Positions 3,733-26,823 of a stretch of 64,000 bases of DNA are shown here, one piece after another. How positions within the stretch are numbered: position 1 is the first letter of the stretch; every line of letters starts with the position of its first letter. Where the stretch lies: positions 2,809 to 66,808 of the forward strand of contig JAQBQS010000016.1 in NCBI GenBank assembly GCA_028286885.1, written 5' to 3'. Source of the stretch: Patescibacteria group bacterium (GTDB taxonomy: Bacteria; Patescibacteriota; Minisyncoccia; Phycocordibacterales; UBA1006). The notes below the pieces were generated by a model that was not told where the DNA came from, ran no database searches, and saw only the letters and a program-made list of their open reading frames with translations. Made by a program: the position numbers and the translations under genes.

Positions 3733-3778
3733 AACAGCTTAAAACCCCTAATTTAGGGGTTTTAAGCTGTTTTTATTT
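3733..3778. terminator. rho-independent terminator
   Basis: aaaaacAGCTTAAAACCCCTAAtttaGGGGTTTTAAGCTgttttt perfect hairpin with U-tract. Confidence 0.6.
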
Positions 3779-3871
3779 ACTATTTAGAGTGCCCGTATTG
3801 CCTAACTTTTTCTTACCTTGAAACCTTTTTATTTCGCACTTTTTCGTACCAACATTTTTAATTTAAAGTGC

Positions 3872-4165
3872 CTAACTGGCAACATTAAACTTGATATTTC
3901 TTGTTTTTTCCAAAATATCCAAAGTAGCTTTTACAGAAGAATTAGAAGTATTTTTTAAGATTAGCCTATCGCCGTATTTACTGACCAATGGGCTTAAAAA
4001 TTCATCTCCCCATGATGGAGCGAATGTTAAAATTCCAGAAAAATCCAAAATAAGCTCTTCTGAATCAGAAAAGTTTTTTAATTCAGGTTCAAATGCTGTA
4101 AAAGCTTCTCTTCCTCGATCCCGAAATACCGATGTGTTTCCAAATTTAACTAATTGAATTTCCAT
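3872..4165 (-). CDS. STAS-like (DUF4325-type) small protein
   Basis: 97 aa; ...FSGILTFAPSWGDEFLSPLVSKYG...; resembles STAS-like partners encoded next to GHKL ATPases (by recollection of family features). Confidence 0.4.
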   Translation of the reverse strand: MEIQLVKFGNTSVFRDRGREAFTAFEPELKNFSDSEELILDFSGILTFAPSWGDEFLSPLVSKYGDRLILKNTSNSSVKATLDILEKTRNIKFNVAS

Positions 4166-4183
4166 AATGTTTATTATACTAAG

Positions 4184-4915
4184 CTAATATTTAATATAAG
4201 CAACACAGCCGCGTAACCAACGAACGGCAGGCCTAATATCTAAATTTGAAGAGTCATGTTTAATTTCCAGTTCTGCGTTACCACTTTGAAATCTAAGTCC
4301 GATTAGATTATTTGTTACGACAGTCCTTACAAATTTTAATCCGTTCCCACGAGACTCCTGAGTCCTTCCAGAAACAACCTCGGTAAATGCTGTATTTATA
4401 GCACTACCATCATCTATCAGGTCTGGGAGGGCTTGCCTTAATGTTGTTAAGATCCCTAAGCCTCGGTCAGCGAGCACAACCTCTCTTTTGTCTGTGTCGT
4501 ATGCAAAAAATATGCCTGCTTCGTCTGGCCAGCGACCTAAGTTATGATCGAAAGAGTTTCCTCCAATTTCTCCAGAAACCGATACCACCAAAGAAAATAT
4601 ATCTTCGAGGAGAGGTGATTTCAGAAGCTCTTCTTGAAACTTGCCAAGCTTGGTCTGAAAAACTGCACTATTCTCAGCATATGCATATCTAGGGATGTGC
4701 GGTATTTCTTTTGAGTCAGCAGTTGCCCATTCAAAAGCTGTTTGAAAAAGATTGTTTGGAAAGAACTCCAGATCAATCTTTCTGTAAAATCTATCCCCGC
4801 CAGGTGATTTCCTAACGGCTCGCAATTTTCCACTCTCGTCCCAACGCCTTAGCGTTGTTATTGAGACATTTAAAATTTTTGCTGCCTCCCCTACTGGTAA
4901 TAGTTCATTCTCCAT
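4184..4915 (-). CDS. HTH (MerR/excisionase-type) fused to GHKL-family ATPase (RsbW/SpoIIAB-like kinase fold)
   Basis: N-term LPVGEAAKILNVSITTLRRWDESGKL (HTH_17-like); GHKL N-box GEIGGNSFDH, G1 box DRGLGI, G2 box SRGNGLKF. Confidence 0.5.
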   Translation of the reverse strand: MENELLPVGEAAKILNVSITTLRRWDESGKLRAVRKSPGGDRFYRKIDLEFFPNNLFQTAFEWATADSKEIPHIPRYAYAENSAVFQTKLGKFQEELLKSPLLEDIFSLVVSVSGEIGGNSFDHNLGRWPDEAGIFFAYDTDKREVVLADRGLGILTTLRQALPDLIDDGSAINTAFTEVVSGRTQESRGNGLKFVRTVVTNNLIGLRFQSGNAELEIKHDSSNLDIRPAVRWLRGCVAYIKY

Positions 4916-5078
4916 AATTTAAGGTTATATTTTGAATTATACACTAATTTAGGCAAAAACTTGTGTAATACCTACTCATAATATATGCTAAATCTACTCA
5001 TTGCAACAAACATTGATTTTATACCTTTAATCCCTATAAATTGCAATCTGATTAATAGCTTATAATCAAAACATATTT

Positions 5079-5366
5079 ATGGCAGTAAGAATTACTTGTA
5101 TTAACAAAGATAATGGAAATCATTTAAATCCTCATGCAGGGATAACGCACTTCGGATGGGTAAATGAACAAACCAGGGCTACTGGTAAAAGCACGAAAGC
5201 TGTTATGGTTGATTTTTTGACTAAACAAGGAGGGAAGGCATATGTAAAAGATGCTAGAGGGAATATCGCTTATGTTGGCGTTATTACGAATCATATTCCT
5301 CCATATCTTAGAACCTACGCGGATGGTAAGTGGTCGGATAATTTGCTCAGTTTGGGCGAATGTTAA
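5079..5366 (+). CDS. small conserved hypothetical protein (DUF3892-like)
   Basis: MAVRITCINKDNGNHLNPHAGITHFGWVNE...; 95 aa; family assignment by recollection, low certainty. Confidence 0.3.
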   Translation: MAVRITCINKDNGNHLNPHAGITHFGWVNEQTRATGKSTKAVMVDFLTKQGGKAYVKDARGNIAYVGVITNHIPPYLRTYADGKWSDNLLSLGEC

Positions 5367-5369
5367 TTT

Positions 5370-6104
5370 ATGAAGTTGGTTTTTATTGATGAGACAGATC
5401 GGCAGGCAAGTTCCACAGTCCACGCATTCTTTTCGATTTGTGGGTTGGTTATTGATGAGTCTGAAATTATGGCAACGACAAACGAACTTGAAGAAATTAA
5501 GAAAAAATACAATTTTTCGAATCTAAAGGAATCTAGAAAAAGCGGTCTTTCCGAACAGGAAAAAGTTATTATTTCTACAGAAGTATTTGATTGCCTCAAA
5601 AAACATAACGCATCAATTATTTCAATCGTCTTGGGAGATTTTTCCATGAGCTTTAACATGCCCAAAGATGACCTTTACATGGGAGCAATACAATTCTTGA
5701 TGGAGCGTTTCTGTCTTATTTTAATGAAAGTAAATAGTTGTGGTTTGGCAATATTTGATTGTACAGAAAAGAGATTTGAGAAAAAGCTTAGAGAAAAATT
5801 TTACGAATATATTCAGACTCAAACCGTTCATATGGCTTGGGAGTCAAAACCAAGAGGTCCCATGAGAGATTTCATTCAACCAACTTTATTTTTTGCAGAT
5901 GATGAGCAAAGCATTCTTATTCAAGCGGTTGATCTTATTGCTGTTTCTTTAAACAGTGCGATCGTTAATATTACGCAAAGCAACCCAAAAATCATGGTTG
6001 CAGATCTTCCTTCTGGTAATAAGTTTCTAAACATATACTGGCCACTTTTTGCTTCAAGTTCTTCAGGTAAAGTCGAGGGGTGGGGTGTAAAAGTTTGGGA
6101 TTAA
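5370..6104 (+). CDS. DUF3800-like protein (predicted RNase H-like fold)
   Basis: N-terminal MKLVFIDETD... matches the hydrophobic-DESG start typical of DUF3800; 4-nt intergenic gap to the preceding gene suggests an operon. Confidence 0.4.
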   Translation: MKLVFIDETDRQASSTVHAFFSICGLVIDESEIMATTNELEEIKKKYNFSNLKESRKSGLSEQEKVIISTEVFDCLKKHNASIISIVLGDFSMSFNMPKDDLYMGAIQFLMERFCLILMKVNSCGLAIFDCTEKRFEKKLREKFYEYIQTQTVHMAWESKPRGPMRDFIQPTLFFADDEQSILIQAVDLIAVSLNSAIVNITQSNPKIMVADLPSGNKFLNIYWPLFASSSSGKVEGWGVKVWD

Positions 6105-6297
6105 TCAAATGTTTTATGATGGTTCTACAACCATTAAGGTGTTAGTTTAATATTTACAAAACCATAATAAATTGAATCAATAAGGCTTTTGAGTCAATGA
6201 ATATTTTGTTCTCATTGCGGATAAGACTTCGTTCCATGTTAGAATCATATTCTGCAAGGTGTTCCATTCTAGGGACATGATGCGCACCACTTCGCAA

Positions 6298-6333
6298 AAA
6301 AGCCATTCGTCAAAACGAATGGCTTTTTTGCGA
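6298..6333. terminator. rho-independent terminator
   Basis: aaaaaaGCCATTCGTcaaaACGAATGGCttttttg. Confidence 0.6.
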
Positions 6334-6361
6334 AAAATATGAGTATGCTATAGTAACGAAT

Positions 6362-6934
6362 ATGGAACTTGAAACGCAACGATTAATACTTCGAAAAGGC
6401 AAAAGGGGGGACTGGAAAGACATTGTTGAAGGAGCTTCGGATCTGAATGTTTCAAAGAATATGACCACGGTGCCTCATCCCTATGGCAAGTCCGATGCGG
6501 AGTGGTTTATCAATGACTCGATCAAGAAGTGGAATCAAAAGAAAGGATACTCTTTTTTCATTGAATTGAAATCGGAAAAGAAAGTTATCGGTGTGATGAC
6601 TATCGGCGGGATTAGCGAAACCAACGGCACAGCGACAACGGGTTCTTGGGTTAACAAGAAATATTGGAAAAAAGGATATATCACAGAAGCAAAAATAGCG
6701 GTAAATGATTTTGCTTTCAATATGTTAAAACTTCGACGCCTCAACTCGACCGTTTTTACGGAAAATAAAGCATCAAATGCTACTCAGTCAAAAATGGGTT
6801 ACAAGATGGAAGGAATGAGCCGAAAAGCACAAAGATCCAAATCCACCGGCAAGATTCACGATATTAATATTTACGGACTTCTTAAGGAAGACTGGAAAAA
6901 GGCGAGAAAAAATCTTGTCCGAAAAAGTAAATAA
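6362..6934 (+). CDS. GNAT family N-acetyltransferase (RimJ/RimL-like)
   Basis: METQRLILRKGKRGDWKDIVEGASD... N-terminal pattern and length typical of ribosomal-protein-acetyltransferase-like GNATs. Confidence 0.55.
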   Translation: MELETQRLILRKGKRGDWKDIVEGASDLNVSKNMTTVPHPYGKSDAEWFINDSIKKWNQKKGYSFFIELKSEKKVIGVMTIGGISETNGTATTGSWVNKKYWKKGYITEAKIAVNDFAFNMLKLRRLNSTVFTENKASNATQSKMGYKMEGMSRKAQRSKSTGKIHDINIYGLLKEDWKKARKNLVRKSK

Positions 6935-7710
6935 TGAAACGAATATTCACTCCCTACGAACTCGCGCAACTGGCGAAACACACGATTACGGATTTTGACT
7001 TGGAAAAAATTTCAAAAGGACTCGGCGAAACGTTTTTGGATATTCCCGTTGAATACATAACAGGATTCTGCGAGTTTCGGAAACATGATTTCCAAGTAAG
7101 CCGCGATACCCTGATTCCGAGAATAGAAACGGAAGAAATGATTGATATCGGATTAGAATGCGCAGCGGGTATTCTTGAAAAAAACATCGACAAGAAAACA
7201 ATCGCGTTTGCGGATATCGGAACAGGATCGGGAATTATTGGAATTTCATTCGCAAACGAACTGTCCGAGAAGGGAATCATCACCAAAGGCACTCTGTCGG
7301 ATATTTCGCCAAATGCGCTCGAAATTGCAAAGCAAAACGCAAAGCGCATTCTTGGCGAGGAAAACGATCTCGCATTTTTGGAATCGAATTTGCTCGAGAA
7401 TTTTCCAGTCTCGAAATTTGATATTGTGTTCGCAAATTTACCCTACATTCCATCTGGGAATATGAAGGGCTTGGATTCCTCGGTGAAAGACTTTGAGCCT
7501 GTATCGGCACTCGACGGCGGACCCGACGGATTGGACTTGGTCAGGAAGCTCCTACAGCAGGCTCCTGCATTCTTGAACCAAGATGGCATCGTGATTTTAG
7601 AAGTCGATGATTCGCATCTTGATGCAACTGAATTCTTGGAGAACTTTCATGTCGAGATTAGAAAGGATCAGTTTGGAAACAACCGGTTTTGGATCTTGAA
7701 ATTAAAATAA
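6934..7710 (+). CDS. prmC: release factor glutamine N5-methyltransferase PrmC/HemK
   Basis: SAM-binding DIGTGSGIIGIS and catalytic NLPY(IP) = NPPY-type motif; 258 aa. Confidence 0.7.
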   Translation: MKRIFTPYELAQLAKHTITDFDLEKISKGLGETFLDIPVEYITGFCEFRKHDFQVSRDTLIPRIETEEMIDIGLECAAGILEKNIDKKTIAFADIGTGSGIIGISFANELSEKGIITKGTLSDISPNALEIAKQNAKRILGEENDLAFLESNLLENFPVSKFDIVFANLPYIPSGNMKGLDSSVKDFEPVSALDGGPDGLDLVRKLLQQAPAFLNQDGIVILEVDDSHLDATEFLENFHVEIRKDQFGNNRFWILKLK

Positions 7711-7773
7711 GATGAAACATAAAATCCTCCATATGGAGGATTTTATGCGTGTTTGTGAATCGCAAAAAGGAAA

Positions 7774-8055
7774 CTATTTGACTGCGTCCTTCAAAGCCTT
7801 TGCGGCTCGGAACTTTGGAACGGTTGTCGCTGCAACCTGGACTGTCTCGCCCGTCTTCGGGTTTCGAGCTGTTCGTGCTGCGCGCGCTTTCGCTGAGAAG
7901 ATTCCGAGTCCGGCGAGCGAGACTTCACCTCCTTTTTTCAAAGTTGATGTGATCTCGTCGATAAACATCTGGACAACTTCCTCGGCCTGGACCTTGGTTC
8001 CGCCGATTTTCGCGTGGATCAAATCGGCAAGTGCTGCTTTGTTCATGTTCATAGG
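7774..8055 (-). CDS. hup: HU family DNA-binding protein
   Basis: MNMNKAALADLIHAKIGGTKVQAEEVVQMFIDEITSTLKKGGEVSLAGLGIFSAKARAARTARNPKTGETVQVAATTVPKFRAAKALKDAV classic HU/IHF fold sequence. Confidence 0.85.
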   Translation of the reverse strand, partial: PMNMNKAALADLIHAKIGGTKVQAEEVVQMFIDEITSTLKKGGEVSLAGLGIFSAKARAARTARNPKTGETVQVAATTVPKFRAAKALKDAVK

Positions 8056-8178
8056 AACGTGTGCGTCCGTCCCGCCCGTCGGCGGTTCGGACAAAATGAT
8101 TAGGACTTGTAATTAGCTGATCAGCCTTTTGCTTCCAAAAAGCATAATCATTGTAGCATAAGGGTTTTTAGGGACTAC

Positions 8179-8859
8179 TTGACTATAAACTTTATTTATG
8201 ACATGATGTTTTGGAATAAAACCGTTATAATTGAACATTTTAAACTAAAAGACAAGAATATGGCTATAAGAAATCAAGACAAAACAGTCATTGTAACCTA
8301 CGGGGGAAGCTTGATGAAGGACTATTCGCTCATCAGCGAACGGTGTGAATCAGTTTGTGATGCGGTAGAGCAGAGTGAAACCGATAAAACATACATTATT
8401 TTGGCAGCAGGATTTAATCCCAAGGAAAAAACCAATAAGCCGTTCAAAGAGTTAATGGCGGAAGACATTGAGATTATGCTCGAAGGAAAAAGATATGAGC
8501 GTATCGCCGACGGTATGTCAGCTGATTTAGTCAAAGGAGAGCATCTCGTCAAAATTATGCCGACAGCGGGAAACCATTGGGGGACACTCAAACAGACGGA
8601 GGCGATGCTGCATGAAATAGGCCTTCTGAAAGATGTCAAAACAATTCATGTTGTCATCACCGAGGAAAACATTCCTCAGCTGAAATTTATCTGGCGGCTT
8701 TTTTACAAAGGCGATGCCAAGCTTGAATTCTCCGGCAAGCCGCGCGGCGGAAGAAGCCATTACTACAGGTACGTGCTGGAAAATTTGCGCAAGGTGAGAG
8801 CGCTCCTCTACTGGTTCTTCAAAAAGGATCTGGAGCGAACGCTTGATATCGATGAATGA
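8179..8859 (+). CDS. hypothetical protein
   Basis: 226-aa ORF; start uncertain (internal Met at MAIRNQDK); no confident motif. Confidence 0.3.
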   Translation: MTINFIYDMMFWNKTVIIEHFKLKDKNMAIRNQDKTVIVTYGGSLMKDYSLISERCESVCDAVEQSETDKTYIILAAGFNPKEKTNKPFKELMAEDIEIMLEGKRYERIADGMSADLVKGEHLVKIMPTAGNHWGTLKQTEAMLHEIGLLKDVKTIHVVITEENIPQLKFIWRLFYKGDAKLEFSGKPRGGRSHYYRYVLENLRKVRALLYWFFKKDLERTLDIDE

Positions 8860-8917
8860 TTTTAAACACAATATCCGCACATTGCTGTGCGGATTTTTTA
8901 TTTAAAAAACTTCTAAG

Positions 8918-8965
8918 CCACCACACCAAATTTCCTTTCCTTAAAAAGGAAATTTGGTGTGGTGG
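8918..8965. terminator. long perfect inverted repeat, probable bidirectional terminator
   Basis: CCACCACACCAAATTTCCTTTcctTAAAAAGGAAATTTGGTGTGGTGG (about 21-bp arms) between convergent genes; a second hairpin ATCCGCACAttgcTGTGCGGATtttttt at 8872-8902. Confidence 0.5.
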
Positions 8966-8980
8966 CAAGAAAAAAGCAGC

Positions 8981-9316
8981 TTAGGCTGCTTGGGGTTCGA
9001 GAAAGAGAGGTTCGAGTTCCTTGATCACTCCGCAGAAGAATTTGATTTCCGCCTTCGGAACGTCCGAAACGAATTCGGGATAGCGATTCTTGAATACCTC
9101 GTGGTTTTTCCAGAGAATGGTAATTTTGCCGTAGATGAGGTCGATGTTTTTCGGCGGAATACGTTCTTTGTGCAAGGAGACCAAAGTCTCGATTGTTTTG
9201 ATCCGTTCGCAGAAGCCCAGGTGAATAGGATGCGATCCTGATTTCGAATACGACTCCATTTTCTGGGGCAAGTTTGCGAATACGGCTGTTACAGCAATGA
9301 TATAGTCTTGATTCAT
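8981..9316 (-). CDS. hypothetical protein
   Basis: C-terminal 112 aa of the 8981-9754 ORF from MNQDYIIAVTAVF...; the upstream part overlaps the trmB-like gene in another frame. Confidence 0.3.
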   Translation of the reverse strand: MNQDYIIAVTAVFANLPQKMESYSKSGSHPIHLGFCERIKTIETLVSLHKERIPPKNIDLIYGKITILWKNHEVFKNRYPEFVSDVPKAEIKFFCGVIKELEPLFLEPQAA

Positions 9317-9392
9317 AACAGTATTATTTTGTCTTATGAGCGTACTATTCTGCTTTATTTTTGTAAAGCAAAACGCCCCCGGCGTCCTGGTC

Positions 9393-10169
9393 TTATTGCG
9401 CCTGATTCCATGCGATATCAAACAGCATGCGCATGAACATGGCGATGGATCTGTTGGTAATAATGACTGAATGAAGCCCTTTGTCCCAAACAGTAAGCGC
9501 GACATGGTCCGTCCAAACGGACATTTGCAAGTTGGAATTGAAAATCGCCTTGGGGAGGGCGCGCACTTCGCGGAATTTGATGCGCGCTTCGAGGCGTTCG
9601 TCATCAATATCTGGAAATTCAGGCAAGAGAAGTTTTGTTTTGATTTTCCGTTTGATACGAAGCTCGCGATACTCCTTGAGCCTGTCGCGCGCAACCGTAA
9701 ACCGCTCGGGGTCTCCCGACATGCGCAGTACCTCGCCGCCTTTTTCCTGATCAAGGGATTTCATGAAAACCTTAACAAATCCGTCCTCTCCTTCCAAATG
9801 CTCGATGTCGATCTTTTCGGATTCGCCGCGCAATGCAAACAGGCTGCGCAGTTCCGGCATGACGAGTTCGAGCTCGGACACCTTTTTTCTCGTTTCGAGT
9901 TCCTCATGCTCGAGGAACTTCCGTATCTTTTCAGGATTTTCGACATAGAACACGCGGCGTTTGCCGGAAGCTGTTACGCCAAGAACGCCGCGTTCAACAA
10001 GGCTTTCAACAGCAAGGTGAATAGTCGAGCGGGGGAGTTTTACGCCGCCTGCAATCGCGGCAATGCTCGAGATTCCATTTTGGAACAAGAAAAATACTGC
10101 CTGAATTTGAGCCGAGTCCATGCCGATATTCTTGAGTGACGACTTCAATTGTTTCGGTATTTCGATCAT
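9393..10169 (-). CDS. TrmB-family transcriptional regulator
   Basis: N-terminal wHTH ...QIQAVFFLFQNGISSIAAIAGGVKLPRSTIHLAVESLVERGVL... followed by a TrmB-like C-terminal domain. Confidence 0.55.
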   Translation of the reverse strand: MIEIPKQLKSSLKNIGMDSAQIQAVFFLFQNGISSIAAIAGGVKLPRSTIHLAVESLVERGVLGVTASGKRRVFYVENPEKIRKFLEHEELETRKKVSELELVMPELRSLFALRGESEKIDIEHLEGEDGFVKVFMKSLDQEKGGEVLRMSGDPERFTVARDRLKEYRELRIKRKIKTKLLLPEFPDIDDERLEARIKFREVRALPKAIFNSNLQMSVWTDHVALTVWDKGLHSVIITNRSIAMFMRMLFDIAWNQAQ

Positions 10170-10427
10170 GAAACAAGATTATCACAAGTAGTTTGAAATG
10201 ACAAATTTTTATGACACTTTGTACAAAAAACTATAAAAACCAATGAAATTGCCATTTTTACAGAAATAGGTATCAAAATTACTTGTCAAAACTATTGACT
10301 TTTGTTTGCGCGCGTGATACAATGCTTGCAGGAAGATAAGAAATAATTCTTCGAGTTCTTTCAAATCCGCGAGATTGCATCCCATTCTCGAAAGGACCGT
10401 TCCCGATATCATAACGTTTGGTGGTAT

Positions 10428-10810
10428 TTGGAACAGTCCTTTCGAGGAAATATTAATAAGCGGCAGCGACTATCTGCCAGGGTCCCCGTGCTGAAGCGAT
10501 TTGACTTCAGGGCGGGGGTAATAACTTGGAGATCCCCATCCAGGAATCAGACACTTAACGTAAGTTCCTCTGACCAACCAATCTGGCGGGCAAAAAACCA
10601 TTCTGCGGGAACAGAATGCCAACTCTATAGACAAGGTTACAACCCCTACGTTAAATGAGTTAAAGTTTTTATGTACAGAGCCGCGTTTCTCGGCTCGTCC
10701 TTCCTTCATGTTCCTAACCGGGCGCAGGGACATGAGGGGCGTGATTAGGTCACGCAAGAAGGGAAGATCTTTGCATTGCATTTGCAAAGGAAGAAAATGC
10801 GCGTAATAGG
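10428..10810. other. unassigned GC-richer noncoding region with extensive hairpin potential
   Basis: No convincing ORF (10470-10859 minus ORF looks spurious); several stems e.g. GGGAGAGGT...ACCTCTCCC (10808-10866); RNase P, tmRNA and SRP consensus elements were looked for and not found. Confidence 0.3.
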
Positions 10811-10866
10811 GAGAGGTCTGGCAAAGGGGGCCTAGAGGGTCATCCTGAGGACCGGACACCTCTCCC

Positions 10867-10906
10867 TTTCTATCAGGATCTCGAAGAAATTCGAGGTTCT
10901 GTAGAA
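10867..10906 (+). promoter_or_regulatory. repeated intergenic motif copy 1 (TATCAGGATCTCGAA-loop-TTCGAGGTTCTGTAGAAA)
   Basis: Follows the terminator-like hairpin 10808-10866; internal hairpin CTCGAA-GAAA-TTCGAG; 25 nt upstream of gene 10931. Confidence 0.5.
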
Positions 10907-10930
10907 ATTATTCTTTCAAAAAATATAAAG

Positions 10931-11305
10931 ATGTGCGCATGTAAAAGTCACGAGAATAAGAATGTGAAAATTGAAAAATTTACAATTATTCATCATTCAA
11001 AAACTTTTATTATGCAAAACATGTTAGTTGTTACAGCCGCGGTGGGCAGCTTTTTTTACGAGGGACATGATGATCCGAAGACATTTTTCCTAAGCGTAAA
11101 ACCTGGTGATTCTTCGGAAGAGCTTGTTTCTACGGTAGTGGAAAAGTTGTATCGAGTTTTTCGCCCAGAGGATCTTTCCTTCGGGAATGGCTTCGTTGGG
11201 ATAATCCACGACCTCGATCCCCAGGGCGGCCTGATTCGAGAAATCGAACAGAAGTTTAAAGAGCGTTTGGGTAGGGACGAGATCACCGTTCAGGTGAATG
11301 GGTAA
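10931..11305 (+). CDS. hypothetical protein
   Basis: 124-aa ORF directly downstream of motif copy 1. Confidence 0.35.
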   Translation: MCACKSHENKNVKIEKFTIIHHSKTFIMQNMLVVTAAVGSFFYEGHDDPKTFFLSVKPGDSSEELVSTVVEKLYRVFRPEDLSFGNGFVGIIHDLDPQGGLIREIEQKFKERLGRDEITVQVNG

Positions 11306-11334
11306 TACCAAGTATTGGCGAGAGTTTCTCGCCA

Positions 11335-11376
11335 TTTTTATCAGAGTCTTGAATTTAATTCGAGGTTCTGCAGAAA
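11335..11376 (+). promoter_or_regulatory. repeated intergenic motif copy 2 (TATCAGAGTCTTGAA-loop-TTCGAGGTTCTGCAGAAA)
   Basis: Follows hairpin GGCGAGAGTTTCTCGCC + T-run; stem CTTGAAT/ATTCGAG. Confidence 0.5.
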
Positions 11377-11476
11377 GCACATTCAAACAAAATATAAATA
11401 TACGTGCTGTTGTATCCATGCAAAATTATCTATTCAAAGAGTTGGAATAGAAAAAAACAAAACAAAATTTTGCAAG

Positions 11477-11989
11477 ATGGAAAAAACAGTATCACGACGT
11501 TGTTCGCTTAGGTATTGCAATTCCTCGGTAGTGAGCTCACTTCAAGTGATCCACTACGGTGCCAGCAGGTTTGAGTTTTCAAAGTTTAATCCCATTGCGA
11601 ACCACTTCGGTACGTATGGAATTAAACCGAGAAGCGGCGGTCTTTGGACCTCGCCGGTTAACTCAAATCATTCCTGGAGAGGTTTCTGCGAAGGTGAAGA
11701 TTTCAATCTTCATACCTTGAGTTCGTCTTTTCGCCTCTCGTTTCATGGTTGCGCCAAAATCGCAATCATTGACTCGTACGGGGACTTGGAGAACCTTCCG
11801 ATGAGGAGTTTTCCAAAGTCGATGGCTGAAACCGATGTCGATTGGGAGCTTGTTGCTCGCAATGCAGACGCGGTTTGGCTTACGGCGAAAGGCGAGACGA
11901 GGACGAGGCTTTCGGCCCCGTACTTGTTGAACGGATGGGACTGCGAAACAGTTCTCATCATGAATCCGAATTGCTTCTACCTCGTGTAG
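11477..11989 (+). CDS. hypothetical protein (start moved downstream of motif copy 2)
   Basis: ORF 11315-11989; the first ATG after the motif is at 11477 (MEKTVSRR...); no recognized domain. Confidence 0.3.
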   Translation: MEKTVSRRCSLRYCNSSVVSSLQVIHYGASRFEFSKFNPIANHFGTYGIKPRSGGLWTSPVNSNHSWRGFCEGEDFNLHTLSSSFRLSFHGCAKIAIIDSYGDLENLPMRSFPKSMAETDVDWELVARNADAVWLTAKGETRTRLSAPYLLNGWDCETVLIMNPNCFYLV

Positions 11990-12005
11990 AGCAGTTTGTA
12001 TTCAT

Positions 12006-12026
12006 AGGACAAGGAAACTTGTCCTC
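12006..12026 (+). terminator. terminator hairpin preceding motif copy 3
   Basis: AGGACAAGgaaaCTTGTCCT followed by CTTTA. Confidence 0.45.
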
Positions 12027-12066
12027 TTTATCAGGATCTTGAACACGTTCGAGGTTCTGTAGGGAA
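12024..12066 (+). promoter_or_regulatory. repeated intergenic motif copy 3 (TATCAGGATCTTGAA-loop-TTCGAGGTTCTGTAGGGA)
   Basis: Same conserved flanks as copies 1 and 2; stem CTTGAAC/GTTCGAG. Confidence 0.5.
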
Positions 12067-12094
12067 TATTTGATCACCTAAAAATAAATAACGT

Positions 12095-12301
12095 ATGATA
12101 GCTGATATTTTTGACGAACTGCTTGCAAAAATTACTCCCCAGGAAAGTTGGACGGTAAAAAAGTGGTTTATGCACCGCTACGGAGAAAAAGGCTGCATCA
12201 GGAGAACTAAGACGAGACGCATATCTCTCTTTCGTCCGAACGGCCCGAAGGCGAGGAAGAGAAAGTACCCGCAAGGCCATCATCCGGAAGATATCTTTTA
12301 G
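12095..12301 (+). CDS. small basic hypothetical protein
   Basis: 68-aa ORF downstream of motif copy 3. Confidence 0.25.
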   Translation: MIADIFDELLAKITPQESWTVKKWFMHRYGEKGCIRRTKTRRISLFRPNGPKARKRKYPQGHHPEDIF

Positions 12302-20369: not shown

Positions 20370-20810
20370 ATGAAAAGAATATATATGTTGGCAATGCTCG
20401 TCGTCATGACGACGGCTGCCATGGCACAGCACTTTCACGGCAACGGCTTCGCCGTCAGAGGCGGATGGAATGTCAGCTTCGGCGTGAGCCGCGGCCTCGG
20501 ATGGGGAACCAATCCCGGATACTACAACAATTTCGGAAGGTTCGGATGCTCAAGTCCGGTTGTCTATGATTATGGATACAACTACCGGTATACCTATAAT
20601 CCGGGCATCTATCTGACGCCGGCCTATTCCGCTCCGACGGTAATCGTACAACAAGCGGCGCCTGCGTCTGTAGTCATCATCCAGCAGCCTGTCGTGATAC
20701 AGGAATCGAACCCTTGCTATTACATTACCGAGTACCACAAGATCGGTGGGCAACAGGTATACGATGCCAACGGCAATCCGGAATCCCGGCGCGTCCTCCG
20801 ATGTGACTAA
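20370..20810 (+). CDS. secreted Gly/Tyr/Asn-rich hypothetical protein
   Basis: Signal peptide MKRIYMLAMLVVMTTAAMA; 146 aa. Confidence 0.4.
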   Translation: MKRIYMLAMLVVMTTAAMAQHFHGNGFAVRGGWNVSFGVSRGLGWGTNPGYYNNFGRFGCSSPVVYDYGYNYRYTYNPGIYLTPAYSAPTVIVQQAAPASVVIIQQPVVIQESNPCYYITEYHKIGGQQVYDANGNPESRRVLRCD

Positions 20811-20965: not shown

Positions 20966-21040
20966 TCCCCTGTAGCTCAGCGGTAGAGCAATCGACTGTT
21001 AATCGATTGGTCGTAGGTTCGATCCCTACCGGGGGAGCCA
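20966..21040 (+). tRNA. tRNA-Asn (anticodon GTT), CCA encoded
   Basis: Acceptor TCCCCTG/CGGGGGA, D-arm GCTC-AGCGGTA-GAGC, anticodon stem ATCGA/TCGAT with loop CTGTTAA, T-arm GTAGG-TTCGATC-CCTAC, discriminator G, CCA. Confidence 0.85.
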
Positions 21041-21304
21041 GTTAGGGGTACTAGCAAGTTCTAGTACCAAGTTCCAAGGTTCTCGCATTGTAAACTCTAG
21101 GTTTTTTCCATCTACAAGCGGGTTCTGAATGAGATAATTCACAAAAGCTCTTTTTTCATGTGTATCAGAACTTTCAAAAAGTTCAGTTGCATCATGAGCA
21201 AGATTAAGTATTACGCCTACAGTGATTTTGTAAGTGTGATCTGCTTTTGTGTGCTCATCAAGTTCGATAGAAAGTCGCGCCTGTCGGTCTTTAAGCTGTT
21301 GCAA
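21026..21304 (-). pseudogene. C-terminal remnant of a large serine recombinase, overlapping the tRNA-Asn 3' end
   Basis: 92-aa ORF; ...DTHEKRAFVNYLIQNPLVDGKNLEFTMREP... parallels the C-terminal ...NKREQITLYSLFFEEFPTYEEIVSRTPKLTFIFKINE of the intact recombinase at 908-2599; no catalytic domain upstream; same 3' overlap geometry with a tRNA. Confidence 0.5.
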
Positions 21305-21389
21305 CTTTTTGTCATAGTCGTCAGGGGTAATTCGCCACTCCGATCATATTTCAGCCCGTACCGCTTAAAAGGCTCGTTATTGTGCTACA

Positions 21390-21953
21390 TTGATGAATAT
21401 GCAAGAAGATAAAAGGATCGCTACAATGGAAGCTCTGTATGAGAATTCAAAGAGCTTAATAACATCCGCCGACTCTCTTATAGAGTCAAAAATGCCCGTT
21501 GGGCATGCTTTTGCGCTACTTCAAACAGCTTGTGAGGAAATCGGAAGAATGTTGGCAATTTTACAAATCCTTCAGAGTGTTAAAGTTGAGCTTCCAAGGA
21601 ATAGGCATACTGTTAAGCACTCCCATTTTCTTAGATTTATGTCGATTCAGCCTGTAGGGCATCGACCTTACTTTGAGATCATTTCCGAGATTACTGGCTT
21701 TGAAATCAATCAAGAGAACTCAAAGGACGATGTTGTTCTTGATAAAATTCAGAAGTTTAGAGAGTCTTGCTTATATGTAAACGTTAATTTCGATAACAAT
21801 CATACGATTTCATCCCCAACTGAAGAGAGAATACAAGGTAAGGTTGAGCAGGTAAAGGAGCTAAAAGAAATTCTTGTAAATTATATGAATGGCATGCTTA
21901 AACCACTTATAGAAGCTCACAAAAACGGGAAGACGATATTCTCTAAATCTTAA
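21390..21953 (+). CDS. HEPN-like / AbiV-like protein
   Basis: 187 aa, predicted all-alpha; Rx4H motif (RHTVKH) within LPRNRHTVKH; size and composition resemble AbiV-type HEPN proteins (by recollection). Confidence 0.4.
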   Translation: MMNMQEDKRIATMEALYENSKSLITSADSLIESKMPVGHAFALLQTACEEIGRMLAILQILQSVKVELPRNRHTVKHSHFLRFMSIQPVGHRPYFEIISEITGFEINQENSKDDVVLDKIQKFRESCLYVNVNFDNNHTISSPTEERIQGKVEQVKELKEILVNYMNGMLKPLIEAHKNGKTIFSKS

Positions 21954-21959
21954 GGTCTT

Positions 21960-22925
21960 ATGGAAAATCTAAAATCTAAAAAACAAATACTTTTAACAGG
22001 GGCTGGCTTTTCAAAAAATTTCGGAGGCTTTTTAGCCAAGGAAATGTTCGATGAGATCTATAACAGCGACCATCTTAAAAAGTTTCCAACATTAAGAGAT
22101 AAGCTTCTTGCCACAGGTGATTTTGAGTTTTTTTATGCGGAAGCAATGCTCGATAAAAACCTAACTCCCGAAGAAAAAGGTGCTGTTAAAGCTGCAGTGC
22201 AAGAAGCTTACAATAACCTGGATAAAATCTTTCAGAGCTCTTTTATATCCAATGGTGATTTGCTAATGAGCTGGGGTGATTTTCTAAGTAAAAACTTTTC
22301 TGGTAATGGGTCGGCTGTAGGGTTATTTTTTACTCTCAATCAGGATTTGTTGCTGGAAAGAAGTTTTGGGAATGTTTGCCCTGGAGTCAAGTCATTTAGA
22401 ATGAACGGGCTTGGACAAGCAGATTCATTTTCTTCCTCTCATTCGGTAGTTCTACCACAAGACACTAAAAGGGCAGAGGCAGACATTTTAGTGGGTAACC
22501 TTTCCTATTTTAAGTTACATGGTTCCTATGGGTGGAAATCTTCTGACGGTACAGATCAGATGGTTGTAGGAAGTAATAAGTCAGAGCTGATTGAAAAGGA
22601 GCCGATCCTGAAGCTTTATTTCGATGTTTTTAAGAAGGCTATCGCCGAGGGAAACAAAAATATTTTAATAATAGGGTATGGGTTCAGGGACAAGCATATC
22701 AACGATGTCTTGATGGACGGGGTTGAAAACCATGGATTAAAAATAGTTTGTATAGGTAACTCATCAATAGCTGATGTTATTAAAAAAGCGGAAAATGAAT
22801 ACCCAGAATGCGTACCTTTACTAAGAAGGGTTGATAAGTACTTCCCTTACCCTTTAGAAAGAATCTTAAATAATAATGCAGGAGACACAAGCTTTCGAGA
22901 TAGGATCGAGGAAAATATTCGATAA
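21960..22925 (+). CDS. SIR2-like (defense-type sirtuin) NAD-binding domain protein
   Basis: N-terminal KQILLTGAGFSKNFGG (GAGxS NAD-binding loop) and FTLNQDLLLE (TTNYD-like motif of SIR2_2/ThsA-type domains); 321 aa. Confidence 0.55.
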   Translation: MENLKSKKQILLTGAGFSKNFGGFLAKEMFDEIYNSDHLKKFPTLRDKLLATGDFEFFYAEAMLDKNLTPEEKGAVKAAVQEAYNNLDKIFQSSFISNGDLLMSWGDFLSKNFSGNGSAVGLFFTLNQDLLLERSFGNVCPGVKSFRMNGLGQADSFSSSHSVVLPQDTKRAEADILVGNLSYFKLHGSYGWKSSDGTDQMVVGSNKSELIEKEPILKLYFDVFKKAIAEGNKNILIIGYGFRDKHINDVLMDGVENHGLKIVCIGNSSIADVIKKAENEYPECVPLLRRVDKYFPYPLERILNNNAGDTSFRDRIEENIR

Positions 22926-23026
22926 CCTTAGCAATTCTTAGCATTATTTAGAGAATGTTAGATTTTCATATAATCGCAGATCCATCTTAATACTCCTCCA
23001 ATTAAGGGTTCTGAACTTGCTTACGA

Positions 23027-23036
23027 GGGGGAGCCA
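23027..23036 (+). repeat. 10-bp direct repeat of the tRNA-Asn 3' end (GGGGGAGCCA), putative att-type boundary
   Basis: Exact match to 21031-21040; extended imperfect match taccgGGGGGAGCCAgtta vs tacgagGGGGGAGCCAagta. Confidence 0.4.
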
Positions 23037-23133
23037 AGTATTGACGATTTATCGAATATATTGTAATGAAAAATCACCATATTAATATGGTGATTTTTCA
23101 TTTATGTGCTATAAGATAAATACAACTAAATCA

Positions 23134-23279
23134 GTAGCCTAAACTCTTGAGTGATCGAGAGCATGGTGAAATAAACCCAGTAAAGATTAAAAAACCCATC
23201 ATATGGGGCTATCTTTACTGGTCGTATCTGGAAACGGATACGGAGGGCGAAAGCTCTCACCTATGTGGTGGGCTTTTTG
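23134..23279 (+). ncRNA. conserved structured RNA motif, copy B
   Basis: See copy A (3211-3358); compensatory stem substitutions; ends GGGCTTTTTG. Confidence 0.6.
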
Positions 23280-23423
23280 CTTGAATTATTAGTTTTATAT
23301 TTCGACTATATCTTCTAAGAGAAATTATTTTTTGAGCTAAGCCTATAACTTCTCTTTAGAAATAATTTAACTCGCTTTGATAAGGTAATTTACCTATAAA
23401 AAGCCTTCAGTAAATGCATTTTC

Positions 23424-24425
23424 ATGGAAAAAAATAACAAAAAGAGTTCGTTAGGAAAAATTGTTGCGATTATGTTCTTTAGCGGATTTGTTCTTCTGAT
23501 TGGGTGTCTTGTCTTAGGATTCAAATATGTATGCCGGCACGAGGCATGCTCGATTTCTTCCCAGAAGCCCTATGTGGTTTCCATAAAAACTGAGGAAGGG
23601 AAAGGTGTGCATGTTGAAAATAAAGGATCTATTTTCTCGATTTTTTACAAAGTCCAGAATGGAAACGGACCCGCTGAAGATTTTTTTAACGTTGATACAA
23701 GTAAGTTTGCAATTCAGGACTTGTCAGTCGATTTGGAGAGCCCCTTTTTTAGTTGTTCTCAGCGAAGAGAGAAGAAGATTATATATGTCATTTTAGATGT
23801 TTCGAAATCGGTTGTTCAATCGGCAGGCGAGGACTATTTCAGCAGAGTTACTTCTACCATACAAAATATTTTAGCCTCGGACAGTCTTGAGCCTGGCGAT
23901 CAAATTCGAATTAGATTTATGGGAAATAATAATGACGCGCTTGATAATCTTGATTTTACCGGACCTCGTTTCAAATATTCAGTTCAAAAGAATTCAGTTC
24001 AAAAGAAAATAACTCTTACTCTTACGGATTACTCGCGTGATCATTTAACGAAATGTCAAAATACATCAGGCGCGATTTCTCTAGAAGATGTTATTGGTCA
24101 TATTCAAAGTTCATATGAGAAACGCATCCAAACTCCGGATAATACGACGAATATTTCCGGTTTGTTGAAACAGATATCAAATGAAGTTTCTTTGGAACAG
24201 GAGCGATTTGAATCGGTTCGATACATCATCTTTACGGACGGTGACTCTACTGACGAATACGACGGATGCGATTACTTGTCCGCAGATAAATGCGGAACTG
24301 ACATCAAAAGTCTCAACTTGAATCATGACCTTTCAAATCGCGCGTATGTCATCTGGGTCAAGGATTCGTGGACACAAGGAGTGTTTAGAAAACTATTCGA
24401 CGGCATGTCCGTTAATTTCCAATAG
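23424..24425 (+). CDS. membrane-anchored vWA (von Willebrand factor A) domain protein
   Basis: N-terminal TM helix; MIDAS DxSxS = ILDVSKS; downstream IIFTDGDSTDE typical vWA motif; 333 aa. Confidence 0.5.
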   Translation: MEKNNKKSSLGKIVAIMFFSGFVLLIGCLVLGFKYVCRHEACSISSQKPYVVSIKTEEGKGVHVENKGSIFSIFYKVQNGNGPAEDFFNVDTSKFAIQDLSVDLESPFFSCSQRREKKIIYVILDVSKSVVQSAGEDYFSRVTSTIQNILASDSLEPGDQIRIRFMGNNNDALDNLDFTGPRFKYSVQKNSVQKKITLTLTDYSRDHLTKCQNTSGAISLEDVIGHIQSSYEKRIQTPDNTTNISGLLKQISNEVSLEQERFESVRYIIFTDGDSTDEYDGCDYLSADKCGTDIKSLNLNHDLSNRAYVIWVKDSWTQGVFRKLFDGMSVNFQ

Positions 24426-24428
24426 ATT

Positions 24429-25757
24429 ATGAAATTATTTAATTCTGACTACAACAAAGGATACAGGGCTGCCAAAAGCTATGTGCGGATTATCTCGCTT
24501 CCGAAAGACGTTACAAACAATATCAAGTCGTTTCTTGATTCCGTTTATGTAAGTGCTGTGAGCGGACTTGCCCATATCCTCCAAGAAAATCTCAGCTATG
24601 CGGAAAACAGAATACGAACTATTGAAGTAGAATTGAAATCACTGAAAGATCGTAAAGAAAAACTGATTACGGAAGCAAATCAAATCGACGAGAAAGAAGT
24701 AACGGAACTTTTTTTGGGACAGGCTTCTGAGATCGAAGCCCGGATACAGGAATTTAATAGGAACATCGAACTTCTCAATGATCAGCTCAATGAATTAAAA
24801 AAAGAACACATTCAGGTTTCTTCGAAAGAAAAGCCAGTTGAAAAGACAAATAGCAAATCAGCTAGCTTCATCGGAAGTGTTATTCAAAAGTTACAGGAAT
24901 CAGCAAAAGAGTTTTCTACGATCGGACCCTGGTTTCTTCTGGTTTTGGTTGATTATGGGATTGCAGTTTCGTTTTTTAGTCAATATGCTGAAGGGCAGGG
25001 TTTTCTAGTTGAGGTAGTTGTCGGGTATCTTCTTCCTCTTGCTATAACACTTATTTCGATGGTTGCCATGCATATGGTAATAGATGGAGTGAAAAAACTT
25101 CAGTCCGACGATGCAGCTCCATCCACGGCTATATCAACTGTCGCGGCAGTCGTTATTTTGGCTTTGATTTTCTTCGGAATCCTTTTCATGAGAGTTCTGA
25201 ATGATGGTGACAATCTTGTCATGCAAATCGTCATTTGGGTTCTCTTCGTAGGACTTGTTATCGTAGTTGGATACGAACTTCATAAGAAAGGAAAAAGCCC
25301 TGGTGTCATTATCGAATATCCTGCAAAGATGATCGTATGTACATTAGGTCTCATATGCGGAGCAATTGCATGGCCATTCGAGCAGATCCACAATGTAACA
25401 ACGAAACAGAGAAACATAGGTCCCGAAGCGGAACTTAAGAAGAGTATGGTGTACATCCAAGAGCGCATCAATAACCAATTTGCTGAAAAAGCTAGGCTTG
25501 AAGGAAAGCTTACTAATCTTCCGAGAGAGAAAATGCAGTTTACTTCCACGAATATCGCGATTCTGAGACAGCAGAAGATGAACATGGCTGAGAAGGATAT
25601 TCAAGAAATAGATGCAATCATTTACGATAATCAAGCCGAACTTGTAAAATCAAAAGCAGCCGAAAAATCATTAAAAGATCGTTTGATGGAAATACGAACG
25701 GGATCAAACGATGGCGCCATGAAACAGCTTATGAAAAGATTGAGGCAAAAGTCGTAG
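24429..25757 (+). CDS. coiled-coil / 4-TM / coiled-coil membrane protein
   Basis: Long heptad-like N- and C-terminal segments flanking four hydrophobic helices (GPWFLLVLVDYGIAVSFF..., LLPLAITLISMVAM..., VAAVVILALIFFGILF, IVIWVLFVGLVIVVGY); 4-nt gap after the vWA gene. Confidence 0.45.
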   Translation: MKLFNSDYNKGYRAAKSYVRIISLPKDVTNNIKSFLDSVYVSAVSGLAHILQENLSYAENRIRTIEVELKSLKDRKEKLITEANQIDEKEVTELFLGQASEIEARIQEFNRNIELLNDQLNELKKEHIQVSSKEKPVEKTNSKSASFIGSVIQKLQESAKEFSTIGPWFLLVLVDYGIAVSFFSQYAEGQGFLVEVVVGYLLPLAITLISMVAMHMVIDGVKKLQSDDAAPSTAISTVAAVVILALIFFGILFMRVLNDGDNLVMQIVIWVLFVGLVIVVGYELHKKGKSPGVIIEYPAKMIVCTLGLICGAIAWPFEQIHNVTTKQRNIGPEAELKKSMVYIQERINNQFAEKARLEGKLTNLPREKMQFTSTNIAILRQQKMNMAEKDIQEIDAIIYDNQAELVKSKAAEKSLKDRLMEIRTGSNDGAMKQLMKRLRQKS

Positions 25758-25890: not shown

Positions 25891-25975
25891 TACATAAATG
25901 CTTGCAAGTGCAGGCATTTGTTTTGAAACTCAGGTGGTTTATCAAAAATTTAACTCTATATGATAAAGTATTAAT

Positions 25976-26262: not shown

Positions 26263-26823
26263 ATGGCAAAGTTCATACTCCACGGAGGCTTCACTCCCGG
26301 AAACACGCATGAAGACAATAGCGATTTCTATTCTGAAATCCTGAAGGATGCTCCTGAAAATGCACGGATCCTCTTGGTTCTGTTCGCGAAAAGTCCTGAC
26401 CGCTGGGCGGCAGGCGAGGAAAAACTCAAGGTGGAATTCAATAATACCCGCCATGCGGGGAATATTTCATTTGAAGTGGCACAGGAGGATGGATTCATGG
26501 AACAGGTCAGGACTTCGGACGTAATTTATCTGAGCGGAGGAGTCAGCAAAAACCTGCTTGATGTTCTTGAAAAGTTTCCTTCATTTGAAAACGCACTTGC
26601 CGGCAAGACGGTTGCAGGAGAATCAGGGGGTGCAAACGTCCTGGCGAAATTTTTCTACAGCCCGTCGGCGAGCCAGGTGTTCGAAGGTCTTGGAATACTT
26701 GCCGTCAAAATAATTCCTCATTATTCAAAAGAAAAAGAAGGATTGCTTGATAACGTAGGAGAGGGCTTGGAAGAATTGTTCCTGTCGGAATATGCTTACA
26801 AAGTTTTCTATAAGGAATATTAA
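26263..26823 (+). CDS. peptidase S51 (PepE/cyanophycinase-like) family protein
   Basis: ILLVLFA... YLSGGVSKNLL...GESGGA resembles the S51 GxSAG nucleophile region; 186 aa. Confidence 0.4.
   Translation: MAKFILHGGFTPGNTHEDNSDFYSEILKDAPENARILLVLFAKSPDRWAAGEEKLKVEFNNTRHAGNISFEVAQEDGFMEQVRTSDVIYLSGGVSKNLLDVLEKFPSFENALAGKTVAGESGGANVLAKFFYSPSASQVFEGLGILAVKIIPHYSKEKEGLLDNVGEGLEELFLSEYAYKVFYKEY

Follow-up and report, generated by a model that had tools for sequence, protein, structure and literature searches.

Tycheposons of Prochlorococcus integrate at the 3' ends of tRNA genes by means of a tyrosine recombinase or a large serine recombinase (LSR) encoded beside the tRNA, carry variable cargo of adaptive or defensive genes, and decay into islands. 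Among defence proteins, lactococcal AbiV, a protein of 201 aa with the catalytic residues R91/H97, cleaves rRNA and needs the upstream abiV2 RNA (bioRxiv 10.1101/2024.05.05.592566), and lactococcal AbiH is a single SIR2-fold gene found on integrated elements (PMC13064643). Nicotinamide adenine dinucleotide (NAD+)-consuming SIR2 domains act as abortive-infection effectors in AbiH as well as in ThsA, DSR1/2 and SPARSA. Here we describe a locus that combines these themes, located at tRNA-Asn(GTT) in a stretch of 64,000 nucleotides (the window) from a Patescibacteria group bacterium (GenBank assembly GCA_028286885.1, contig JAQBQS010000016.1, positions 2,809 to 66,808). We consider it likely that this locus is the immobilised remnant of an LSR-driven, tRNA-targeting element with autonomous AbiV-like and SIR2 effectors as cargo. 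Its core comprises the following features, in window positions:

20966-21040, plus strand: tRNA-Asn(GTT), the presumed integration target (ARAGORN; Rfam tRNA, 70.8 bits)
21002-21331, minus strand: homology to the C-terminus of an LSR, containing an open reading frame (ORF) of 92 aa at 21026-21304
21111-21389, plus strand: upstream leader of the AbiV-like gene, running antisense to the remnant of the recombinase, with a promoter-like site at 21111-21138
21390-21953, plus strand: AbiV-like HEPN protein of 187 aa, above the Pfam and NCBIfam cut-offs
21960-22925, plus strand: short stand-alone SIR2 protein of 321 aa (Pfam SIR2_2), predicted to be an NAD+ hydrolase

A first-pass annotation, made by a model from the sequence alone, had proposed a degraded integrative element at tRNA-Asn with HEPN and SIR2 cargo, and the recombinase stub, the geometry of the site and the family profiles all support this proposal. 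It had also read the 92-aa ORF as a serine-recombinase remnant overlapping the tRNA 3' end, which our analysis bears out on both counts. According to ARAGORN, Rfam and the ORF call, ORF 21026-21304 shares the final 15 nt of tRNA-Asn. A Pfam scan of the ORF gave no match; searched exhaustively with phmmer, 1.84 billion representatives yielded 995. Its full-length relatives P0160, P0165, P0192, P0200 and P0233 are 492-519 aa long and contain Resolvase, Recombinase and Zn_ribbon_recom domains; a further one, P0221 (501 aa), has Resolvase and Recombinase and no Zn ribbon match. In phmmer, these proteins align to the ORF through their last ~90-110 residues only, and in tblastn, residues 401-513 of P0160 map to 21331->21002 with 53% identity. 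The ORF thus corresponds to the C-terminal stub of an LSR from which ~400 N-terminal residues are gone, including all catalytic and DNA-binding domains. The three-domain arrangement of the family is missing and the C-terminal extension alone is left, so that, judged by its sequence, the ORF is a remnant of an LSR and not a functional member.

The strand opposite the tRNA-Asn 3' half is also read by the recombinase ORF. Continued past the stop codon of the remnant, the minus-strand translation reads ...ASTPNWLPR*GSNLRPID and runs through the tRNA, which compares with the C-termini ...LRGQDSNLRPIDYI of P0160 and ...WLPGLDSNQRPSG of P0192. The segment 'DSNLRP' is the complement of the tRNA-Asn T-arm, and the TAG stop of the remnant is the complement of a CTA in the T-stem of the window tRNA, where the P0160-bearing locus L088 has CTG and accordingly a Q in the protein. 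In L088, P0160 borders on the 3' exon of a tRNA-Asn gene split by an intron, the flanking exons of which form a tRNA with anticodon GTT, and in L135, tRNA-Asn(GTT) is overlapped by a P0192-like LSR. These two cases indicate that the family of the remnant targets tRNA-Asn, with the ORF reading through the tRNA 3' half. As tRNA-Gln, tRNA-Glu and tRNA-Gly are overlapped likewise by other LSRs, including LSRs beside RNAs of the LOOT family discussed below, the view that genes of this kind end within tRNA genes is supported. The island resembles tycheposons in its integration at a tRNA 3' end, the position of the recombinase beside the tRNA, its variable adaptive or defensive cargo and its decay; unlike tycheposons, it has hosts from the candidate phyla radiation (CPR), a recombinase of the LSR type whose ORF reads through the tRNA 3' half, and a frequent association with LOOT RNA.

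Several observations on this recombinase family stand by themselves. In L088, a group I intron splits tRNA-Asn(GTT) at 11501-11900 (-) (Rfam Intron_gpI 11549-11795), and the stop codon of P0160 (ORF 10001-11548) lies exactly at the junction of the intron with the 3' exon, the whole 3' exon being recombinase coding sequence; a recent report (PMC13011429) describes intron-split tRNA-Asn genes in Patescibacteria. Among the 150 best relatives of the remnant (P0121-P0270), 135 are shorter than 260 aa and 131 begin with Met; C-terminal-only LSR stubs seem to be common. One such stub, in L164, lies beside housekeeping genes for nucleoside diphosphate kinase and a formyltransferase, another, in L167, has a frameshifted look, and on the short contigs L164-L167 no tRNA was detected that would mark these stubs as tRNA scars. 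ORF 20370-20810, just upstream of tRNA-Asn, contains 13 nt that match the T-arm of tRNA-Gly exactly (AGGGTTCGATTCC; 20702-20714 (-)); with E = 0.03 in blastn-short, this match could be due to chance or be the relic of a tRNA fragment.

The first cargo gene encodes the 187-aa protein in which the first-pass annotation had recognised a HEPN-type Rx4H motif. This assignment holds: the protein matches Pfam HEPN_AbiV (PF18728) with 52.7 bits against a cut-off of 27.1, over profile positions 5-145 of 155, and NCBIfam TIGR04498 (AbiV_defense) with 52.3 bits against a cut-off of 27. NCBI, which names the protein AbiV, places its start at 21426 (175 aa). The motif RHTVKH corresponds to R71-x4-H76, a position that appears consistent with R91/H97 of lactococcal AbiV, given an apparently shorter N-terminus. 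AbiV of lactococci is a toxin-antitoxin system of type III composed of the HEPN RNase AbiV1 and the RNA abiV2, and the window locus shares with it a protein of similar size (187 versus 201 aa) that passes the family cut-offs, an Rx4-6H motif and a non-coding leader of ~250-350 nt directly upstream. It differs from it in its strong divergence, in the SIR2 gene only 6 nt away, in a leader that is antisense to a recombinase remnant, and in its CPR host. Over the ~350 nt upstream of the AbiV-like gene there is no convincing ORF, the promoter-like site at 21111-21138 matches at 9/12 positions with a TG, and the segment 21041-21395 folds modestly better than its shuffled versions (z-score -2.2). By analogy with the lactococcal system, this leader is the slot in which an abiV2-type antitoxin RNA would lie.

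The second cargo gene starts 6 nt past the AbiV-like stop codon. Its product, labelled JWM20_867, hypothetical protein, by NCBI, matches Pfam SIR2_2 as its sole domain with 36.6 bits against a cut-off of 24.5, and the motifs LLTGAGFS and TLNQDLLLE, on which the first-pass annotation had based its SIR2 assignment, fall on invariant columns of the family. In an alignment of 33 family sequences, these columns are T13 G14 A15 G16, T125 L126 N127 Q128 D129 and H187, and the invariant motifs are TGAGF..NFGG, FTLNQD, KLHGSYGW and GYGFxDxHIN. We found 1100 clusters of SIR2 homologues at E <= 0.001, representing a family of stand-alone proteins of ~330 aa with a patchy distribution over CPR phyla, Nitrospira, Deltaproteobacteria, Elusimicrobia, Legionella, Paraburkholderia, Methanoperedens, ANME-2 and Methanosarcina. 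An AlphaFold2 (AF2) model computed from the family alignment has a mean confidence (pLDDT) of 91. In Foldseek, its best match is the E. coli SIR2 protein of SIR2-HerA, also known as Nezha (8sxx, E = 5e-10, template modelling (TM) score ~0.55-0.6), followed by SPARSA SIR2 and then by sirtuins; a profile search of the PDB likewise gave 8yhx at 1e-13 and 8j4u/8su9 at 1.4e-11.

The window protein and the SIR2 proteins of SIR2-HerA (8sxx, 8sub, 8su9, 8j4u, 8yhx, 8w9l), a type that assembles into dodecamers, have the motifs FT.N.D, HGS..W and GYGF.D.HIN in common, and by this analogy a role as NAD+-consuming effector is expected. However, with 321 aa it is shorter than those proteins (~380-430 aa), to which it is ~15-18% identical, and it reaches only 40.3 bits with NCBIfam SIR2_antiphage (NF042942), where the cut-off is 500. 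No HerA or ATPase domain was found among the neighbours scanned in the window, and HerA is also absent from the most frequent tight-neighbour families listed for the loci of SIR2 homologues. The other SIR2-based systems share the concept of an NADase as abortive-infection effector, but the window protein lacks the SLOG domain of ThsA, the long sensor domain of DSR and the Argonaute partner of SPARSA; it consists of 321 aa with SIR2_2 only, and its neighbours are AbiV and a LOOT RNA. Nor does it match Pfam AbiH. The PADLOC check proposed by the first-pass annotation gave a split result: many SIR2 models matched the SIR2 protein, the best being Aga_SIR2 at 1.6e-14 over the SIR2 core residues 123-272 only, and none matched the AbiV-like protein.

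To what extent the two cargo genes belong together can be judged from the genomic contexts of the SIR2 family, for which we used an exact look-up of homologues and 80 loci from named genomes. Among these, 63 SIR2 copies were complete with full flanks, and a neighbour was counted as tight when encoded on the same strand within 50 nt. In 31 of the 63, there is no tight neighbour; 20 copies have one upstream only, 6 downstream only and 6 on both sides. The tight neighbours of the remaining 32 are unrelated to each other and include DUF2726, DUF4145, DUF559, DUF4238, DpnII, AAA_15/AAA_21, PycTM, NERD, AbiU2 and helix-turn-helix proteins, so that no conserved partner emerged. HEPN-type neighbours recur as a minority, with AbiU2 in L002 and beside L006, and DUF4145 in L006 and L081. 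AbiV next to SIR2 was seen only in the window and on a 2.1-kb contig, on which an identical SIR2 protein is encoded next to a HEPN_AbiV gene. Given this diversity of partners and the many stand-alone copies, the SIR2 protein is most likely an autonomous defence-island protein and the AbiV-like gene a second, independent gene of the abortive-infection type.

The same contexts show the SIR2 family as cargo of other LSR elements, which supports the interpretation of the window locus as an integrative element with defence cargo. Of the 80 SIR2 loci, 9 contain LSR genes. The order is LSR, small ORFs with a SAM (S-adenosylmethionine) riboswitch and a DUF4238-SIR2 pair in L004 and L009, and SIR2, LSR and tRNA in L040. 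In L013 (Saccharibacteria, 1-12262), a tRNA is followed by SMODS and Cap15 genes (CBASS-like), an LSR, an N6_N4 methylase with DpnII, SIR2, LOOT, a membrane protein and a ParB-methylase. Thus, the SIR2 family behaves like a defence-island gene. The riboswitch in L004 (4218-4328; RF00162, 69 bits) lies within the LSR-bearing island, upstream of the small ORFs and DUF4238-SIR2.

Where the window island ends on its right side is less clear, and the following features bear on this question:

23027-23036, plus strand: direct repeat of the terminal 10 nt of tRNA-Asn, GGGGGAGCCA, with two copies in the window
23065-23102, no strand assigned: perfect 19-bp palindrome with flanking T/A runs, the arms 100% complementary with 0 nt between them
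23136-23258, plus strand: LOOT RNA (RF03000), Rfam 92.6 bits against a gathering threshold of 46.4, full length 1-121
23424-25757, plus strand: two low-GC ORFs after LOOT, of 333 aa and 442 aa, with sub-threshold Pfam and PADLOC matches only

According to the first-pass annotation, a 10-nt repeat extensible to ~18 nt brackets about 2 kb. The 10-nt repeat could be verified: the window contains GGGGGAGCCA at 21031-21040, at 23027-23036 and nowhere else, against an expectation of 0.03 occurrences. It is modestly non-random, since in 5 kb of first-order Markov sequence a match arises by chance with P = 0.001 if only the exact terminal 10-mer is considered, with P = 0.03 if any 10-mer from the last 30 nt of the tRNA counts and with P = 0.16 if any from the whole tRNA does. 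The ~18-nt extension did not survive; it takes an indel and adds no score, and no longer repeat was found. The copy at 23027-23036 may be what is left of the original tRNA 3' end after its displacement (attR). The palindrome, which begins 28 nt past the repeat, resembles a terminator and could have served tRNA-Asn as such originally; after the present tRNA, at 21040, a terminator scan found none. The GC content is 0.33-0.42 over 21.0-26.0 kb, compared to 0.45-0.55 on both sides. With an integrase remnant beside a tRNA 3' end, an atypical composition and accessory cargo, the locus has the make-up of a tRNA-integrated island. Its extent could be that of a 2.0-kb element bordering on an older variable region, or that of a single island of ~5 kb; the low GC content, which goes on to ~26 kb, and the recurrence of LOOT beside LSRs make the right boundary of a 2-kb element uncertain.

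The LOOT RNA downstream of the palindrome has a counterpart elsewhere in the window, within a sister element at tRNA-Gly:

863-3335, no strand assigned: sister element consisting of tRNA-Gly, an intact LSR and a LOOT RNA
863-934, plus strand: tRNA-Gly(TCC) (ARAGORN; Rfam)
908-2599, minus strand: intact LSR of 563 aa with Resolvase, Recombinase and Zn-ribbon domains
3213-3335, plus strand: LOOT RNA, sister copy (Rfam RF03000, 81.3 bits)

The LSR at 908-2599 overlaps tRNA-Gly by 27 nt, so that the suggestion of a family of elements with the same geometry, present twice in the window, is upheld, though the two window copies are distantly related. The accompanying claim that the tail of the remnant mirrors the C-terminus of this LSR had to be dropped: BLASTP gave nothing better than E = 6, and in tblastn the intact LSR aligns with the family of the remnant at ~22% identity through the N-terminal domains only, which places it in a different LSR subfamily. 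The sister island has a low GC content (0.31-0.39) from ~900 to ~7000, and its genes between 908 and 7000 include DUF4325 (STAS-like) beside a MerR-HTH protein, DUF3892 and DUF3800.

Both window LOOT copies match model positions 1-121 above the gathering threshold, have the same strand as the tRNA and are located towards the N-terminal side of the LSR or stub; the copy beside the cargo is followed by a terminator-like hairpin at 23256-23272. Among the other loci, we found LOOT in L006/L007 (L006 7861-7979; beside DUF4145-SIR2, AbiU2 and a tyrosine integrase), in L013 (7218-7341) and in L088 (7824-7939 (-)), in the latter ~2 kb from the LSR P0160. A search with a pattern derived from the known copies yielded 2 IMG/VR and 73 metagenome loci (L089-L163) with 64 distinct LOOT sequences. 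LSR genes are present in 24 of these 75 loci, compared to 9 of the 80 SIR2 loci as control, which amounts to a density of ~1 per 18 kb versus ~1 per 91 kb, a ~5x enrichment. Among the 29 loci with at least 2.5 kb of upstream sequence, roughly 16 have an LSR antisense upstream, its N-terminus facing LOOT at 0.17-4.5 kb, and where the contig is long enough (L092, L098/L115, L138, L146, L163), the LSR C-terminus lies on a tRNA of the LOOT strand. Overall, LOOT is 0.17-5.4 kb away from the LSR start, mostly in divergent arrangement and on the strand of the target tRNA; the opposite orientation occurs in a few loci (L090/L109, L135/L126, L148). In Rfam, LOOT is an sRNA-type (small RNA) gene only, and both the link to LSRs and the downstream membrane-protein genes are observed here. 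The searchable literature, which names LOOT in passing only, has nothing on its function or on a link to recombinases, and the main text of its discovery paper does not discuss it; the association of LOOT with LSRs is newly noticed in this analysis.

In 44 of 55 distinct loci, LOOT is followed by an ORF on the same strand whose start lies roughly 140-400 nt beyond that of LOOT, and 30 of these 44 ORFs encode a signal peptide or membrane anchor at the N-terminus, compared to 20% of control ORFs. Examples are 3390-3728 and 23424-24425 in the window, 7400-7834 in L013 and 7005-7781 (-) in L088. This pattern would fit a leader or regulator of secreted-protein cargo; no homology was found among the post-LOOT proteins themselves. 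In the window, the 333-aa ORF has an N-terminal membrane anchor and the 442-aa ORF a coiled coil and hydrophobic stretches, and both are probably part of the same variable region. Two further ideas on LOOT were discarded. That it natively lies downstream of tRNAs, with elements inserting in between, is at odds with the LSR-free LOOT loci, none of which shows a tRNA directly upstream; LOOT can therefore not be explained simply as a native tRNA neighbour. That it guides the recombinase to the tRNA is, at the resolution of this comparison, at odds with the match scores of cognate versus non-cognate LOOT/tRNA pairs, which are 12.7 versus 12.7 in sense and 12.8 versus 13.5 in antisense. As side observations, L152 contains a second LOOT-like copy ~400 nt downstream of the first (blastn, 79% over 92 nt to the L145 LOOT), which hints at tandem LOOT genes in some genomes. 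In the window, the two-gene block 23424-25757 is bracketed by a direct repeat of 33 nt (23355-23387 and 25938-25970, 79% identity); both copies lie just upstream of ORFs with hydrophobic leaders (23424, 25976), and the repeat may be a duplicated promoter and ribosome-binding-site region or a cassette boundary.

Several results weigh against the interpretation as a decayed island with two autonomous effectors. The AbiV-like protein returned only itself from a word-indexed search of 5.8 billion clusters, and it went unmatched in PADLOC; a tblastn search of plasmids likewise gave no match and a phmmer search of the PDB nothing relevant. Its AF2 model, predicted from the single sequence, has a pLDDT of 60.7, with residues 63-118, the region of the motif, below 50, and Foldseek with this low-confidence model found nothing at E <= 0.001, the HEPN structures 1wol, 7bxo and 6m6u appearing at E = 0.4-2. 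The 6-nt gap between the two genes also fits an operon-encoded true pair, as does the presence of a tight upstream gene, often of a defence type (AbiU2, DUF4145, DUF4238), in ~40% (26/63) of SIR2 homologues. Finally, the comparison with an empty tRNA-Asn site, which the first-pass annotation had suggested, brought no confirmation: exact look-ups of the flanking proteins 20370-20810 and 26263-26823 returned no other contigs. Because no empty-site genome was found, we infer integration, boundaries and the order of events.

The earlier suggestion of a HEPN-SIR2 two-gene system, in the form of an obligate pair that would act in abortive infection as sensor or regulator plus effector, or as dual effectors with one trigger, draws on these operon-like features. 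No terminator was found between the two co-oriented genes, and coupling can be even closer in homologous loci, where DUF4145 overlaps SIR2 by 8 nt (L006, L081), DUF4238 overlaps it by 4 nt (L004) and AbiU2 follows 11 nt downstream (L002), which could mean a modular 'X + SIR2' design. We nonetheless consider an obligate pair improbable, as the AbiV-like protein has no relatives, half of the SIR2 homologues stand alone, their partners have no family in common, the pairing itself recurs only beside an identical SIR2 protein, and the partner of lactococcal AbiV is an RNA rather than a second protein. A weaker variant, in which the short SIR2 family is a modular effector plugging into interchangeable upstream HEPN-type sensors such as AbiV, AbiU2 and DUF4145, would accommodate this diversity. 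That neither gene serves in defence, the SIR2 protein being a housekeeping deacylase and the HEPN protein a toxin-antitoxin or RNA-processing factor, appears very improbable to us: both folds do have non-defence members, and sirtuins are among the weaker Foldseek matches, but the best matches in sequence and structure are antiphage SIR2 proteins, the family is distributed patchily across phyla, its neighbours are restriction-modification, CBASS, AbiU2, DUF4238 and PycTM genes, and the low-GC island around the locus contains an integrase remnant.

Two further alternatives concern the extent of the element and the part played by LOOT. If the element were exactly 2.0 kb long, from the tRNA 3' end to the repeat, the region from LOOT onward would be native chromosome or an older, separate island. 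In its favour, the terminal 10-mer of the tRNA recurs at P = 0.001 to 0.03, the palindrome 28 nt after the repeat would terminate the transcript of a tRNA that at present lacks a terminator, and in L098 and L138 the sequences most similar to a tRNA 3' end lie upstream of LOOT, at -389 and -149 nt. In L163 and L146, however, the best such relics are downstream of LOOT, and for eight related elements no consistent attR emerged, the best matches scoring no higher than shuffled controls and falling on both sides of LOOT. The tRNA-Gly element has no comparable direct repeat, an empty tRNA-LOOT site was not seen, and mobile-element and defence genes continue beyond LOOT in L013 and L088. Together with the continuing low GC content and the LOOT enrichment beside LSRs, this makes the exact 2.0-kb extent somewhat doubtful, if still quite possible. 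LOOT could be a functional component of LSR elements, regulating recombinase expression or integration and excision, and the island a degenerate RNA-plus-recombinase element. This would agree with the presence of LOOT at both window LSR loci, at the enriched frequency described above and in L088, a locus found via its LSR and not via LOOT, as well as with the usual divergent position on the LSR N-terminal side, down to 173-222 nt (L123, L133, L140). Yet many LOOT loci with several kb of flanking sequence contain no LSR, distance and orientation vary, conservation between loci is confined to a ~170-nt RNA module (about -30 to +145 relative to the RNA), no complementarity of LOOT to its cognate target tRNA was seen, and the frequent same-strand ORFs with signal or anchor sequences fit a leader or sRNA that is tied to cargo and not to the recombinase; we therefore regard this role as unlikely.

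On our preferred reading, that of a decayed LSR island with independent effectors, an LSR element would have integrated at tRNA-Asn and supplied a replacement tRNA 3' half that was at the same time the end of its recombinase gene; recombinase genes of this family run antisense into the tRNA, the 3' half of which templates their last 9-17 codons. A later deletion or replacement, with its junction within 21332-21389, would have removed ~1.2 kb (~400 N-terminal codons) and fixed the island; having lost these codons, the island is no longer capable of excision by a recombinase of its own. Its cargo slot, on the side of the recombinase N-terminus, is occupied by the two defence-type genes, which have the same orientation and are probably transcribed together, either from the leader promoter or through read-through from the tRNA. 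The AbiV-like HEPN protein would be a metal-independent RNase, probably restrained by its own leader RNA as in lactococcal AbiV, and the HerA-less SIR2 protein, with its catalytic Asn, Asp and His intact, would deplete NAD+ when triggered. Both would act independently as abortive-infection effectors and be neighbours by chance, in an island that lies in, or abuts, a larger low-GC variable region starting with LOOT and a membrane-protein gene.

As a decayed tRNA island with defence genes, the locus is an ordinary kind of object, and tRNA-targeting LSR elements are common in Patescibacteria. What goes beyond routine is an LSR family written onto tRNA 3' halves, a short SIR2 family and the association of LOOT with LSRs. 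A recombinase gene that lies partly on the complementary strand of its target tRNA is an unusual gene layout, in a group of bacteria whose defence systems and mobile elements are poorly charted. Short HerA-less SIR2 proteins form a large family that extends from CPR bacteria to archaea; should they prove to be autonomous NADase effectors, their genes would rank with the smallest defence genes of the SIR2 type. Much more tentatively, LOOT may be a working part of widespread tRNA-targeting LSR elements of the CPR, where it may control the expression of recombinase or cargo, or mark the insertion slot that here holds AbiV and SIR2, in which case an orphan structured RNA would gain a role in LSR elements. 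In either case, tRNA-targeting LSRs and genes for secreted or membrane proteins are, as far as the searchable literature goes, the first genomic-context clues for LOOT and provide a testable handle on this RNA.

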